Shown: positions 1,981-26,958 of the stretch, in pieces
Layout: the number at the start of each line of letters is the position of its first letter
Position numbering within the stretch: position 1 is the stretch's first letter
Virus genome (UHGV): UHGV-0076060
Length of the DNA stretch: 39,918 bases
Reading direction: 5' to 3' (one strand)
Origin: a virus
Program-made: the position numbers and the translations under genes
Notes under the pieces: generated by a model
Databases searched by the model: none
What the model was told of the DNA's origin: nothing
Seen by the model: only the letters and a program-made list of their open reading frames with translations

Positions 1981-2478
1981 TCAGTGCCACGATTTTTGCT
2001 TCTTCAGTGAATCGTATTGCTGTTCGCAGGATTCTCCTGCAATCCGATACTTTTCAGCCTCAGCTGCTGTTGCGTTGTAAACTCGGTTGCTTTCTTCAAG
2101 CATGTCGGCGAGCACACCGATGACCTTGCTGGCTGGCGTGCCAGTGGGGAAAGATCCGGTATAGTGTTCGGCGAGTCGCTTGGTTTTGTCAAGCTCGGCG
2201 CGCAGGCTGTCAGCAGCGGCATTAGCATGCTCAGCATCAACACGCGCCACATCGATACGGGATTGTGCTTCACGTTCAATTTGTGTTTTCTCCTGATCAC
2301 GTTGTGACCTGGCCTTATCATCAGCCTGTTTCTGATCTTCCTGTGCCTGCGCATACCCGGCGTCGTACTGACGACTGCCGTGTGCATTCCAGGCTACAAC
2401 TCCTGATATGACCAGAACAGCAAGCATCGCCATGATAACCAACTGTTTCCAGTATGCTTTTGCGAATGCCCAGATCAT
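1981..2478 (-). CDS. Rz-like i-spanin (165 aa)
   Basis: N-terminal TM helix then charged coiled-coil periplasmic domain; last gene of lysis cassette; start overlaps endolysin stop. Confidence 0.7.
2004..2252 (-). CDS. Rz1-like o-spanin lipoprotein embedded in Rz in the +1 frame
   Basis: Embedded ORF with signal peptide and lipobox (LLTAC) followed by Pro-rich short mature peptide; classic Rz/Rz1 embedded architecture. Confidence 0.6.
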   Translation of the reverse strand: MWRVLMLSMLMPLLTACAPSLTKPSDSPNTIPDLSPLARQPARSSVCSPTCLKKATEFTTQQQLRLKSIGLQENPANSNTIH

Positions 2479-3104
2479 ACCGCCAGCACCTTACTGGCAG
2501 TGATGTATCGCGCGCGCCGGTCATCAATGCCGTTCCGGCCACCATTGATAAGCAGAGTTACACGTGCAATATCTCCGGTATACTTCATGCAGCCTTTGCT
2601 GGAGAAGAACCAGGCCGCGCTACGAGCCGCGTATTCGTCCTGTGCCAGCAGTTCAGGATTCTCCAGCAGGTCAACTTTCAGACCGTTTCCGCAGTCACGA
2701 TAGTTATTCAAACCGGTAATCTGGATAAGCCCGCGCCCACGGTAATTCCAGCCATCGCCGGGAGCATTGTTACCCATGCGTTTGCTGTATACCAGATTTG
2801 CGATCGCGCGCTGGCGCTCAAGTGGCAATGGTGGTTCACCAGCGCGGCGCCCCAGTGCATTAGCCTGTCCCTGGGTGAGGCGTCCAGTCCGGACAAAGCT
2901 TGCCAGTCCGGTAACGCTGTAGTTGAAATTCTCCTGCAACCTAGTGAACCCCCCAGACTCATGCCCAACTTGAGCAATAAACATTGCCTGATCTTCTGCT
3001 TTGCTGATACCAAACTCTTTCATCGCAGAAGTTATATGCGAGAACCAGCGAGCGGCCAGCGCCTCGCTAATACCAGCAGCTCGCTGGAATTGTTTAATCT
3101 CCAT
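2475..3104 (-). CDS. endolysin, glycoside hydrolase family 19-like (chitinase class I-like lysozyme)
   Basis: 209 aa with motifs [12 protein letters not shown] and [12 protein letters not shown] typical of GH19-type phage endolysins; sits between holins and Rz. Confidence 0.8.
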
Positions 3105-3402
3105 GTTTAGACCTCGTTATTTTGAAAATCTGAACGACGTTACCGCGCGTTTTAATAACCGCAGCAAGCATGACAGCGTTGATAATGACCTCAGATAAAT
3201 CCACAGCCATTGGCGTGCGTAACCAGATTGCATAGACGACACGAACTGGAATACTGGCTGCAGCAACAATCAGGAAATAAGCAAGCCATCCCCCCCATCT
3301 TCGGTGTTGTGAACCGTTACGCCGGAAAGTGACAACGCGAATTGCTATGCCAGTACAAATAACTGCATTGGTGATAAGCAAAAAAAACTCATGCGTTACC
3401 AT
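3094..3402 (-). CDS. holin/antiholin-like small membrane protein (102 aa)
   Basis: Three predicted TM helices, immediately upstream of endolysin with overlapping boundaries. Confidence 0.55.
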
Positions 3403-3805
3403 CGTCTTTTCTCCCCGGAATTAACTCGCGTGGATTATCGGAACGGTGATAGAGCCAGATGCCAATTCGTACTGCGACGATTGCTGACACAAATGCGCCA
3501 GCAGAGAAAACAATCCCTTTCTCGAAAGAGTCCTGCGTGATGGTAGGTATCAGGCTGGCTATGCCGATAAGAATTGATGCTGCTGGTTTGTAGAAAAGAA
3601 GTCCGCAGAGAAAACTAAGCATCGACAAGAGTACGCGACGACGAATTGGGTACTCTACCGCAGAGGTAACAAAAATTACCGCGCCAGCCAAAGCTCCCAA
3701 AGCAACCTCAGGAGGCACTCCTGCTATCACCGCCGCCAGAGAACTCATGCTAAGCCACTGATTTAATGTTTCACTGGTTAGTTGAGCTGACATATTTTCC
3801 ACCAT
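3389..3805 (-). CDS. holin-like multi-TM protein (138 aa)
   Basis: Several hydrophobic helices, charged C-terminus, first gene of lysis cassette; start may be the internal Met (MSAQLT). Confidence 0.55.
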   Translation of the reverse strand: MVENMSAQLTSETLNQWLSMSSLAAVIAGVPPEVALGALAGAVIFVTSAVEYPIRRRVLLSMLSFLCGLLFYKPAASILIGIASLIPTITQDSFEKGIVFSAGAFVSAIVAVRIGIWLYHRSDNPRELIPGRKDDGNA

Positions 3806-4014
3806 TTATATGCATAACGACCCCCTAAATAGTAAAGCATCATGCATGATAAACCATTTATGGTTTTTTGTTACCCTGGCATCGTAAATCCCCTGCCTTT
3901 GATGTCGATAATAAGGCTCGCCTTTTACATAACTCTGAAGAGATTGCAGTACAGAAATTATTTAAAATATAGAGGCTTAGTTGAATTCCGCGCCATCAAA
4001 TGGCGCGGTAGCAG

Positions 4015-4299
4015 TCAAATATAGAAATAAACACCAAAACAAACAGTAACAGGAACAACAAAGTCAAACAGGCTTCCAACATCCCATACGCGCGGATCAA
4101 AACCTCCCCACCACGGCATATTCATACGCTTGCCATGCCCGAACATTTCAATCCAGCGATATTCTGCCTGGGTGTGTTCACGCGCAATGAAGAACGTACA
4201 ACCAGCTATCGCTCCGTAAGCCCAGTTTCCGGTAAAAAGGCCAATCAGTACCTGCGCAGCCACAGCACAAAACGCATGAAGGAAAGGTGTTATATCCAT
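4015..4299 (-). CDS. small polytopic membrane protein (94 aa) immediately downstream of tailspike
   Basis: ORF from ATG at 4299 with strong RBS AAGGAG; 2-3 hydrophobic helices; function unknown. Confidence 0.5.
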   Translation of the reverse strand: MDITPFLHAFCAVAAQVLIGLFTGNWAYGAIAGCTFFIAREHTQAEYRWIEMFGHGKRMNMPWWGGFDPRVWDVGSLFDFVVPVTVCFGVYFYI

Positions 4300-4333
4300 T
4301 ATCGCTCCTTTAACATAAGGATAAATAAACACT

Positions 4334-6649
4334 TCATAAAATAGATTTCGTCTTTGTAACAATAATATCTACAAAATCACCTGCAGATATAGCTGATGGT
4401 ACTGTATCTGCAAGAGTAATCTTTTCTGAAGAGATGTTTTGCACATCTAATAATTTATTTTCAACCCCATCCGTATATACCAATTTGACATCACTGAATG
4501 GAGGGTAATAAGTGACTGTTCCTTGGTATACATATATTTCACTGCCTGAAATTGATTTCACTACATACCTGCCCCTTACAAGATTAATTTTGAGTTCAGA
4601 TAAATCGGTTTTATAACAGGTAATTCCTGAACCAATGTTAGCCATACTAATATCAGTATCACTATAATAAGTAATTGCTTTTCCTTGTTTTAAGGTGAAG
4701 TTATCTTTGCTTTTCCTTGGCAAGGATGTGCTATTTTTGTAATATCTACCAGTTAAGCATAGCCATGAAAATGCAGTATTCGCTACATTACCACCAGAAT
4801 ACACAGCTAAACGAATTGCACTAACTGGAACCCCTTCATTATTAATCCTGATCTTAATGGAAGAAATGTTAGCAACAGTAGCATATCTATGGTTAGATGA
4901 ATCCCATTGCATAGAAGAAGTTATTGCTTCTGTTTGTGAAGTTATGACATTCCCATCTCCATCTAATGCATACAGGTAAATGCGAAACGATGCCGTATCT
5001 GCTGAGAATGTAAACATATCACCATTTCTTACTGGTACATCTCCAGATTCCCATAACAACCCAAAATTCCGCATAAAAGCAAACTTAGAAGAAACTAGGT
5101 GACGGATATTATATAAACCATCTACATCTGTTTGATATGCTAATACACCAACTTCTCCATTGTTGGCACTGGATATAAATGGGGTGTTAGCATTTAAAGA
5201 AAACAATGTTACTTCATCGGATATATTTTCCTGAACATGAAATACTGCATTCCCCTTGCCATTATCAGTTACCTCTACATAAGTGTAAGGTGATGGATTG
5301 TATGGTTCATTTGTATAGTAAGGAGAACTTAACCATGAAGCCTCAATTGAGTTATTCCACGTATATTCACCAAAGTTAATTATCAACTGTTGGTTAGTTG
5401 GGGATGATGGATATCGTTCAAAACGAAACCCGTAGAAGTAATTGTTATCACCTCTTTGAATATCAATTTTACCTGCCCCCTCCATAGTTCCACCATAAAA
5501 CTTATTGTGGTTATGATGATATGGATTATCAGCGAAAATGATATTATTCGTACGATTCAGATAAAAATAGTTTTCATTTATCCATCCGTTCTCAACTCCA
5601 AGAAAATGAATTGTATCGACCTTTTTCAGGTTAAAGGTTGAGTATGCTATTGAATAATCCGTCGATGCCACCGAAGCATTATAATTTGCATATAACTGTA
5701 AGTAGTCGCAACGCTCAATGTTTATATGCTGCCCTTTTGCCCCGATAATACGAATATCCGGTGTCGTTTCAGATGAAATACCAGAATTTCTGATAATCGT
5801 TCCGAAGTTTTGTCTTGGGTTGTTAGGGTTTGATGCATTCCCGCCAAGCAATACCCCTATTCCTGAGTGGGATATGGTAAAAACAGCATTGGTCATTTCG
5901 AGGCTGACATTACGAAGATTTAATGTCTCCGTAATAATAAAATTACCTTCCGCTCGTAATGTTCTGGATGATTCTCGTGCATATTCTGCAGCCAGGATCA
6001 ATGCAGATGTATCATCTGTTATACCATCGCCTTTTGCCCCAAAATCGCGAACACTAACGGTGTCTCTCATCTTATCCTGGAACGTTCGGTATACTGCTCC
6101 AGAACCATACTGAATAAACCAACCAAAACCACCAACAACCCCGGCGATTGCAGCATCGACATAATTACGCATTGAGCGATTATTTACAGCGTCCTGCTCA
6201 AGTGATGGATCTGCAAGGTTAGAAATTTTGTTTTGCTTTGCATCGTAATATTTTGCAAGCAAAGATGGTTTCATCAATGCACGTCTGAACCACCCAAAAC
6301 ATTGCTGGATCAGCATCGTCAGGTAGTCAAAAGCATCTTCATGCACTTCGGGGAAAAATTTTCCCTGATTGCGAAGATCTGTCTCCTGCACTACATCAAG
6401 CACACGATCTATCGTAATTCGCCAGCCAGCAGCAAGCGGAGACGGCAGAACCACTGAACCGCCACTATAAGTGCCCGCCCCAGTTACCGTATAACCGGTA
6501 TCCAGAACCAATTCTGTTACGTTCCCGTTCAGGTCAGACACCTGAACAACCAGGTCTGATTTTCTGAAAATTCGAAAAGTATACGGAAACGATGTCGTAA
6601 CGCCGTTACCTGTGTATTCGTTGTGGTCAACTTCGGTTGAGACCGTCAT
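4334..6649 (-). CDS. tailspike/tail fiber with T7-type N-terminal adaptor domain and beta-helix depolymerase-like body (771 aa)
   Basis: N-terminus (YTGNGVTTSFPYTF...DLVVQV) matches the phage T7 tail-fiber N-terminal pattern; DFGAKGDGITDDT resembles pectate-lyase/beta-helix motifs; C-terminal coding part (4334-5700) is markedly AT-rich. Confidence 0.8.
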   Translation of the reverse strand: MTVSTEVDHNEYTGNGVTTSFPYTFRIFRKSDLVVQVSDLNGNVTELVLDTGYTVTGAGTYSGGSVVLPSPLAAGWRITIDRVLDVVQETDLRNQGKFFPEVHEDAFDYLTMLIQQCFGWFRRALMKPSLLAKYYDAKQNKISNLADPSLEQDAVNNRSMRNYVDAAIAGVVGGFGWFIQYGSGAVYRTFQDKMRDTVSVRDFGAKGDGITDDTSALILAAEYARESSRTLRAEGNFIITETLNLRNVSLEMTNAVFTISHSGIGVLLGGNASNPNNPRQNFGTIIRNSGISSETTPDIRIIGAKGQHINIERCDYLQLYANYNASVASTDYSIAYSTFNLKKVDTIHFLGVENGWINENYFYLNRTNNIIFADNPYHHNHNKFYGGTMEGAGKIDIQRGDNNYFYGFRFERYPSSPTNQQLIINFGEYTWNNSIEASWLSSPYYTNEPYNPSPYTYVEVTDNGKGNAVFHVQENISDEVTLFSLNANTPFISSANNGEVGVLAYQTDVDGLYNIRHLVSSKFAFMRNFGLLWESGDVPVRNGDMFTFSADTASFRIYLYALDGDGNVITSQTEAITSSMQWDSSNHRYATVANISSIKIRINNEGVPVSAIRLAVYSGGNVANTAFSWLCLTGRYYKNSTSLPRKSKDNFTLKQGKAITYYSDTDISMANIGSGITCYKTDLSELKINLVRGRYVVKSISGSEIYVYQGTVTYYPPFSDVKLVYTDGVENKLLDVQNISSEKITLADTVPSAISAGDFVDIIVTKTKSIL

Positions 6650-26881: not shown

Positions 26882-26958
26882 GTGGCATTAGCTCAGTTGG
26901 ACAGAGCAACCGCCTTCTAAGCGGTTGGTCGCAGGTTCGAATCCTGCATGCCACGCCA
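26882..26958 (+). tRNA. tRNA-Arg (anticodon UCU, reads AGA)
   Basis: Manual cloverleaf: 7-bp acceptor GTGGCAT/ATGCCAC, D-stem GCTC/GAGC, anticodon stem ACCGC/GCGGT with loop CTTCTAA, T-arm GCAGG-TTCGAAT-CCTGC, discriminator G, encoded CCA. Confidence 0.85.

Follow-up and report, generated by a model that had tools for sequence, protein, structure and literature searches.

The gene analysed here, ORF94, lies at positions 4015 to 4299 on the minus strand of a 39,918-nucleotide (nt) stretch of viral DNA, UHGV virus genome UHGV-0076060 (this whole stretch is called the window in the following), which stems from an epsilon15/phiV10-type prophage (genus Uetakevirus) of Escherichia coli. The comparison of genomes has revealed that ORF94 is a dispensable accessory ('cargo') gene that is located nearly always directly behind the gene of a receptor-binding protein, and the conservation of its sequence identifies it as a real gene under purifying selection. 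That its product is an inner-membrane protein with three helices is well supported by the predicted fold. Judged by its sequence, ORF94 is a further member of a catalogued, uncharacterised family of phage proteins, phrog_1443. In being common and catalogued the gene is ordinary, yet it is very widespread and highly conserved.

The initial annotation, made from the sequence alone, had described a small gene with a strong ribosome-binding site between the tailspike and the holins, and this description was borne out. The ATG start codon (4299-4297) is preceded, at a spacing of 5 nt, by the motif AAGGAG (4305-4310, minus strand), and 94 codons are followed by a TGA stop (4017-4015). The flanking genes were identified by profile matches: downstream lie two genes that match holin models, and upstream, on the same strand, lies a gene for a tailspike or tail fibre of 771 amino acids (aa; 4334-6649), which matched phrog_18162 with 1263 bits and has an N-terminal anchor homologous to Uetakevirus receptor-binding proteins. 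The tailspike stop codon (4334) is separated from ORF94 by a gap of 34 nt. The same 94-aa coding sequence has been called by NCBI PGAP in E. coli AST20 as a 'hypothetical protein' (WP_021536340.1); over this stretch, the identity between AST20 and the window is 99.8%. The named phage closest to the prophage of the window is phiv142-3.

The slot between tailspike and lysis genes (3806-4333 in the window) was compared with the respective slot of 74 E. coli Uetakevirus prophage loci (L158-L237). It was empty in 39 loci, held a homologue of ORF94 in 19 and other cargo in the remaining 16, and thus the gene exhibits the presence or absence between collinear genomes that is one of the marks of a moron, an independently transcribed accessory cassette. 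Two of the 19 ORF94 loci (L177 and L178) contain only decayed remnants. In both of them, the remnant (slot at about 5585-6000, beside a tailspike of 966 aa) retains a central REHTQ..EYRWIEMFGHGK that is recognisable yet broken, and its 3' part has been deleted as far as the conserved sequence upstream of the holin gene. The ORF94 homologues adjoin tailspikes of seven different lengths, ranging from 709 to 966 aa, and therefore ORF94 is not matched to one receptor specificity.

The other cargo of the slot is of a uniform kind. Among ten of these proteins that were scanned, nine matched Acyl_transf_3, AT3 plus SGNH, GtrA/GT2/DUF6056 or DUF2142, and one (251 aa, same strand) had no Pfam match; in these sister prophages, Acyl_transf_3 genes occur in either orientation, the GtrA/GT2/DUF6056 set is gtrABC-like, and DUF2142 is a membrane protein. 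In phiV10 the slot is occupied by oac, in epsilon15 by a Wzy-like gene and the gene of a 66-aa inhibitor. Thus, the slot is a hypervariable cargo site, and every identifiable occupant other than ORF94 is an O-antigen modifier. The initial annotation had stated that, in epsilon15-type phages, the gene after the tailspike encodes a small hydrophobic inhibitor of the host O-antigen polymerase. The tailspike-to-lysis slot indeed holds serotype-conversion genes, but the inhibitor is the second gene and not the first: in epsilon15, a 392-aa Wzy-like protein is encoded directly behind the tailspike and is followed by the inhibitor, which has two transmembrane (TM) segments, and both genes are on the opposite strand. 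In the 528-bp slot of the window, ORF94 is the sole open reading frame (ORF) of at least 85 aa, and the annotation of phiv142-3 includes no other conversion gene and no gene of the Wzy or O-antigen-ligase families.

The linkage to receptor-binding genes extends far beyond the genus. The genomic context was analysed for the best 80 viral contigs from IMG/VR, and in 78 of them a co-directional ORF ends at most 150 bp upstream of the family gene; 65 of these 78 upstream ORFs encode Peptidase_S74 fibres (lambdoid phages) and eight encode Uetakevirus tailspikes. Altogether, the family gene is found behind receptor-binding genes in six phage architectures, including the Uetakevirus tailspike of the window. 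In lambdoid phages it follows the side tail fibre (Stf) or Peptidase_S74 fibre gene and is distant from the lysis genes, and in phage 21 the homologue closes the late operon, behind the gene of the side tail fibre. In a P2/HP1-like prophage of Leclercia, it is inserted between an S74 tail fibre gene directly upstream and the baseplate genes, and in Comamonas it lies behind the gene of a GpJ-type tail tip protein of 2520 aa. In other Comamonas and Pantoea prophages, the upstream ORFs are unannotated, and a BLAST comparison grouped one of them with lambdoid Stf. A diversity-generating retroelement is the setting in Comamonas nitrativorans and Pigmentiphaga humi, where the homologue (6001-6300 in both loci) is located between an unannotated ORF of about 380 aa (383 aa in one case), presumably the variable target gene, and the accessory gene avd. 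In phage 21 (5386-8835 of the locus), the homologue is followed by the sitABCD iron/manganese transporter genes on the opposite strand, so that two membrane-related cargo units are adjacent.

An alignment of the DNA from four contexts showed that homology starts at the ATG, whereas the upstream DNA is unrelated and the ribosome-binding site is specific for the context. The mobile unit is thus a bare coding cassette without a conserved promoter.

It should be noted that the family is not confined to phages. Chromosomal copies occur in five species of Aeromonas in a conserved synteny (pirin gene, family gene, RIO1 kinase gene), in sphingomonads and a metagenome-assembled genome of the Burkholderiales directly after ligA (four loci), and in Leclercia upstream of urea ABC transporter genes (five loci). 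The chromosomal neighbours (pirin, RIO1, ligA, urea ABC transporter, PhyH) are unrelated to each other and mostly not co-oriented, and no common pathway was discerned among them. Within E. coli, 1904 of 5426 complete genomes contain DNA of the family, at a median of two and up to seven places each, and the carriers include Nissle 1917, ATCC 25922 and NCTC86; in all matches listed, the E. coli copies are annotated as 'hypothetical protein'.

ORF94 matches the model of its family over the full length. Its residues 1-94 align to positions 1-94 of the 97 positions of the phrog_1443 hidden Markov model (PHROGs v4) with an E value of 6.9e-55; the annotation of this family in PHROGs v4 reads 'unknown function'. 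The phage copies of phrog_1443, for example, CPT_21_24 of phage 21 ('putative membrane protein') and Orf5 of phiv142-3, are 80-89% identical to ORF94 and share its position behind a receptor-binding gene, and nothing essential differs between them and ORF94. A word-indexed search yielded 558 homologues; when 1.84 billion cluster representatives (clusters at 50% identity) were searched with a profile, 453 of them matched at E<=1e-3. All homologues are stand-alone proteins of 63-146 aa without fused domains. In 210 aligned members, which were drawn from alpha-, beta- and gammaproteobacteria and Desulfovibrio, the residues R40, E41, Q44, A45 and E46 (REx2QAE) are invariant, and more than 90% of the sequences agree at H8, G29, Y47, R48, I50, R58, W72 and P83; the conservation is 0.94 for H8, 0.80 for Q16, 0.95 for R58 and 0.96 for W72. 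The core motif of the family is (A/G)RE(H)xQAEYRWI...G.G.R.NMPWWGGFD.R.W...S.LD..P., and every invariant column of the signature H8 ... REx2QAEYRW ... R.NMPWWGGFD.R.W ... P83 is present in ORF94. The ratio of nonsynonymous to synonymous substitution rates of ORF94 is 0.13-0.28 in comparison with other E. coli phage copies, and about 60% amino acid identity has been retained with the copies from Aeromonas, Comamonas and Leclercia in spite of saturated synonymous sites.

Searches beyond the family were unproductive. ORF94 had no match in Pfam or NCBIfam, a sequence-profile search of solved structures gave no match, and a structural search with the predicted fold gave no informative neighbour. 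A Pfam scan of 105 diverse members at E<=5 led solely to sub-threshold matches. Among these, PF11808 (the N-terminal membrane hairpin plus charged region of PhoR) was recorded in seven of the 105 members, with a best E value of 0.0032 and below the gathering score; the matches fall on residues 8-62 of ORF94 in the family alignment A3. They are probably compositional, in that a hairpin of two TM segments is followed by a Trp/Arg-rich segment, but the topology class is shared. No paper containing the ORF94 motif or the PHROG identifier was found in the literature. In a study of phiv142-3, orf6 and orf10 were deleted and orf5 was not, and orf5 is absent from the table of upregulated genes; a paper on lambdoid co-transfer and a paper on infant-gut coliphages both do not name the gene.

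The initial annotation had also called the product a small polytopic membrane protein, and this description is correct, to which the location of the gene on the minus strand has to be added. The AlphaFold2 model, with a mean confidence score (pLDDT) of 94.2, contains helices at residues 4-23, 26-53 and 74-93, in agreement with the hydropathy profile. The first membrane helix (hydropathy residues 5-23; 4231-4287, minus strand, like all parts of the gene) carries the conserved residues H8 and Q16. The hydrophobic part of the second comprises residues 26-39 (4183-4224), and the helix runs on to residue 53, as part of a conserved polar juxtamembrane helix and loop (residues 40-72; 4084-4182) with the sequence REHTQAEYRWI...GKR.NMPWWGGFDPRVW, which the alignments define and which is predicted to face the cytoplasm. 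The third helix (residues 76-94; 4018-4074) includes the end of the protein, ...CFGVYFYI, so that the chain terminates inside a hydrophobic helix without a charged tail; in the family, the C-terminal tail has on average four residues with 0.6 lysines plus arginines. Two alternative C-terminal alleles exist, a Uetakevirus type, to which ORF94 of the window belongs, and a lambdoid type. The 36-residue loop after helix 2 (residues 40-75) contains on average 5.7 lysines plus arginines, compared to about 0.5 at each terminus. According to the positive-inside rule, the loop and the N-terminus would be cytoplasmic and the C-terminus would lie on the other side of the membrane, and thus the invariant segment is predicted to be exposed at the cytoplasmic face of the inner membrane.

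With respect to function, we tentatively propose that ORF94 is an envelope-acting conversion or exclusion factor that is independent of the O-antigen type of the host, which we regard as possible, though not as probable. The invariant basic, Trp-rich segment (REx2QAEYRW...R.NMPWWGGFD.R.W) at the cytoplasmic face of the inner membrane would bind a component that is conserved across Proteobacteria, most plausibly one of a lipid-carrier-linked step in the assembly or display of surface glycans, and the binding would alter the receptor layer that is recognised by tailspikes and side fibres. An interfacial segment that is basic, rich in Trp and contains Glu would be appropriate for contact with the phosphorylated head group of a lipid or with a conserved enzyme of the membrane. 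ORF94 would then be a positional analogue of the epsilon15 polymerase inhibitor, oac and gtrABC that is not homologous to them. The proposal is made because ORF94 occupies the Uetakevirus slot and the family is linked nearly obligatorily to the receptor-binding genes of every tail type, and because the conservation fits a universal host target or lipid ligand rather than a fast-evolving phage partner. In addition, small phage proteins such as the Gnarl proteins can alter the O-antigen alone (PMC12373910), and this was also counted in its favour. A more far-reaching version, which we consider unlikely, is that phrog_1443 represents an unrecognised class of phage factors, the REx2QAE / WWGGFD surface of which would bind or process a universal lipid-carrier-linked intermediate, or its enzyme, and would thereby remodel the display of glycans. 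This would explain why the gene travels with the receptor-binding genes of every tail type and why it is present in about one third of the E. coli genomes, often in several copies.

Several points argue against an envelope-acting factor. ORF94 is oriented like the late genes, no promoter of its own was recognised and none active in the lysogen is evident, and the classical conversion genes in the slot are mostly oriented opposite to the late genes. Neither a sequence link nor a fold link of ORF94 to known conversion, exclusion or defence proteins was found. The site behind receptor-binding genes is a general hotspot for unrelated cargo. Moreover, Aeromonas, sphingomonads and Leclercia have conserved copies outside of phages; sphingomonads lack classical lipopolysaccharide, and thus the basic activity of the family is not specific for the O-antigen, and it may perhaps be unrelated to phages. 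The function has been read from position and conservation and is put forward with low confidence.

Exclusion might also be achieved without any change of the envelope. ORF94 could be an inner-membrane superinfection-exclusion or abortive-defence protein that leaves the glycans untouched and, like T4 Imm, P22 SieA or HK97 gp15, blocks the entry of the genome or kills the cell upon infection, an explanation to which we assign a low probability. These three proteins, as well as the immunity proteins against pore-forming colicins (about 100 aa, three TM segments), are small polytopic inner-membrane proteins borne by mobile elements, and they are near ORF94 in size and helix number, but no link in sequence, profile or fold connects them with it, and to our knowledge a long invariant polar loop like that of ORF94 is not present in proteins of the Imm/SieA/gp15 type or in the colicin immunity proteins. 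The small polytopic nature of ORF94, its conserved face that is predicted to be cytoplasmic, and the presence/absence pattern in the sister prophages would be in line with such a role. The same is true for one orphan copy beside toxin-antitoxin, Fic and transposase genes and for the occupation of cargo hotspots behind tail-fibre genes, including the position in P2-like prophages, which Rousset and colleagues are said to have described in 2022 as an anti-phage hotspot. However, ORF94 matched none of the defence models of PADLOC-DB 2.0 (0 families at E<=1), and no lysogen-active promoter is evident. In addition, proteins that contact parts of incoming phages usually diverge fast, whereas the conservation of this family is extreme, whatever the host or the type of phage, and the syntenic copies in Aeromonas and sphingomonads resemble resident cellular genes.

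The latter copies point to another explanation, namely that ORF94 is a small membrane protein of a cellular type that either works as an enzyme or binds lipids or ions in membrane homeostasis or stress, and that phages carry it as cargo for the fitness of the host, with no role in exclusion. Its probability is equally low. The (near-)invariance of H8, R40, E41, Q44 and E46 is reminiscent of an active site or a ligand site, the family is spread across Proteobacteria, and the chromosomal copies, syntenic in the five Aeromonas species, beside ligA in sphingomonads, and in Leclercia, would be expected for a cellular gene. Yet this explanation does not account for the constant position after receptor-binding genes in six architectures, even in a retroelement cassette, and it is further weakened by the lack of a conserved operon partner indicating a pathway and of a match to an enzyme family or fold.

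As an alternative to conversion, the initial annotation had offered a third holin-class protein, i.e. a holin, antiholin or lysis regulator that sets the timing of lysis together with the two downstream holin-like proteins. ORF94 encodes a small membrane protein, has the orientation of the late genes and precedes the lysis cassette, and in one Comamonas prophage three tightly packed small ORFs of unknown function follow the homologue; nevertheless, a role in lysis is improbable. ORF94 matched no holin model in Pfam or PHROGs, although both of its neighbours do, and a match to Phage_holin_8 was found in only one of 105 family members, below threshold. The charged C-terminal tail is missing, as the protein ends inside helix 3, and the conservation of the polar motif far exceeds that usual in holins. 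The cassette already contains a Phage_holin_8 and a Phage_holin_3_7 protein, and 55 of the 74 sister loci (the 39 empty ones and the 16 with other cargo) have the same cassette without an intact ORF94, to which the two loci with remnants have to be added. Furthermore, the lambdoid, P2/HP1-like, retroelement and chromosomal copies do not adjoin lysis genes.

Very improbable is a diverged homologue of the epsilon15 inhibitor of the O-antigen alpha-polymerase (Wzy), gp22 (NP_848230), with which ORF94 has only the slot and the small hydrophobic character in common: BLASTP gave no alignment at E<=100 and hhalign a probability of 0.1, size and helix number differ, the same ORF94 sequence is found beside at least seven tailspike types while Wzy proteins are serotype-specific and highly diverse, and homology was rejected because similarity is absent, ORF94 is on the late strand and a Wzy partner is lacking. 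Thus, of the idea that ORF94 is a conversion or exclusion factor related to the epsilon15 inhibitor, the position in a slot that harbours O-antigen modifiers in sister prophages has been retained and the homology has been lost.

A functional analogy between ORF94 as an envelope-acting factor and the epsilon15 inhibitor, on positional grounds alone, is possible. Both are small hydrophobic proteins encoded in the same slot of phages of the same genus. However, gp22 has 66 aa and two TM segments and is encoded on the opposite strand in a pair with a Wzy-like gene, whereas ORF94 has 94 aa and three helices and is encoded unpaired on the late strand, and, unlike gp22, it is not tied to one O-antigen type. 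The protein Iap of Pseudomonas phage D3 is likewise a small hydrophobic phage protein, and it has been likened to ORF94 by description alone. The oac/Acyl_transf_3 and gtrABC genes of Uetakevirus and Lederbergvirus prophages are found at the same hypervariable locus behind the receptor-binding gene (PMC10408124), but their products are large multi-pass enzymes of known families that are mostly encoded opposite to the late genes, while ORF94 is tiny, resembles none of the known families and points the same way as the late genes. A further comparison is with Gnarl1-3, small stand-alone phage proteins that alter the O-antigen and of which Gnarl3 is reported to bind GalU; they stem from Klebsiella phage KpV79, Mu (Mup07) and Escherichia phage Mangalitsa (PMC12373910). 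They are similar to ORF94 in size class (40-90 aa) and exemplify the idea of a conversion that needs no large phage enzyme. The possibility that ORF94 itself is a Gnarl protein was rejected, as the motif is absent from the accessory-gene supplements of that paper (PMC12373910), and KpV79, Mu and Mangalitsa were not among the tblastn matches listed for ORF94. If the positional argument is right, ORF94 would extend the known theme of cargo behind the receptor-binding gene that modifies the envelope or excludes phages by a novel variant without homology to the others, and its construction would differ from that of the epsilon15 and D3 inhibitors, the oac and gtr enzymes, the Gnarl proteins and proteins of the Imm/SieA type.

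The family is among the genes that are most consistently linked to receptor-binding genes across prophages of the podo-, sipho- and myovirus types, and yet it has no Pfam or NCBIfam model. If ORF94 changes the envelope or excludes other phages, it would be a common and overlooked determinant of host range and of serotype-independent resistance, which would have a bearing on phage therapy and on the prediction of host range from receptor-binding genes, and it would also offer a compact new tool to perturb a conserved membrane process. If it is a cellular membrane factor instead, its recurrent capture beside receptor-binding genes would itself require an explanation.

ORF94 is co-directional with the tailspike gene and the lysis genes, i.e. 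it is on the late-gene strand. A scan for consensus promoters revealed sites no more frequently than in shuffled sequences, and none in the 34-nt gap between the tailspike gene and ORF94. The absence of a promoter-like site from the gap makes co-transcription with the tailspike gene the simplest reading, and thus ORF94 is probably transcribed together with it. On the other side, ORF94 is separated from the lysis cassette by 209 non-coding nt (3806-4014), which hold a hairpin and an inverted repeat. The hairpin (3988-4008, minus strand) begins 6 nt past the ORF94 stop codon and has a G+C-rich stem of 9 bp (-16.6 kcal/mol, z = -3.8), and phiv142-3 has retained it. As no U run follows, the hairpin is not a canonical intrinsic terminator, and it was not called by intrinsic-terminator scoring; it is possibly an element that defines the transcript end or its stability. 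The inverted repeat AACCATTTATGGTT (AACCAT-TT-ATGGTT, 3852-3865) is located about 47 nt upstream of the start codon of the Phage_holin_8 gene and may serve the lysis cassette as a binding site for a regulator or as a site of RNA processing. This repeat is conserved in phiv142-3 and in L177.

The lysis cassette (1981-3805, minus strand) was delineated by Pfam and PHROGs matches and is composed of the genes for Phage_holin_8 (3389-3805), Phage_holin_3_7 (3094-3402), a GH19 endolysin (2475-3104) and Rz (1981-2478), all on the minus strand. An ORF for an Rz1-like outer-membrane spanin with the lipobox LLTAC is embedded out of frame within Rz (about 2004-2252, minus strand), and the same arrangement is found in epsilon15 and phiV10. 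The insertion site of the prophage is beside the host genes yfgH and yfgI, which lie in the host DNA that forms the left end of the window, with yfgH (outer membrane lipoprotein) at 713-1231 and yfgI (DUF5384) at 1247-1786. As host genes reach to 1786 and the Rz stop codon is at 1981, the boundary of the prophage (attachment site) lies between 1787 and 1981. The phage also carries a gene for a tRNA-Arg with the anticodon TCT (26882-26958, plus strand), and phiv142-3 likewise has a tRNA-Arg(tct).

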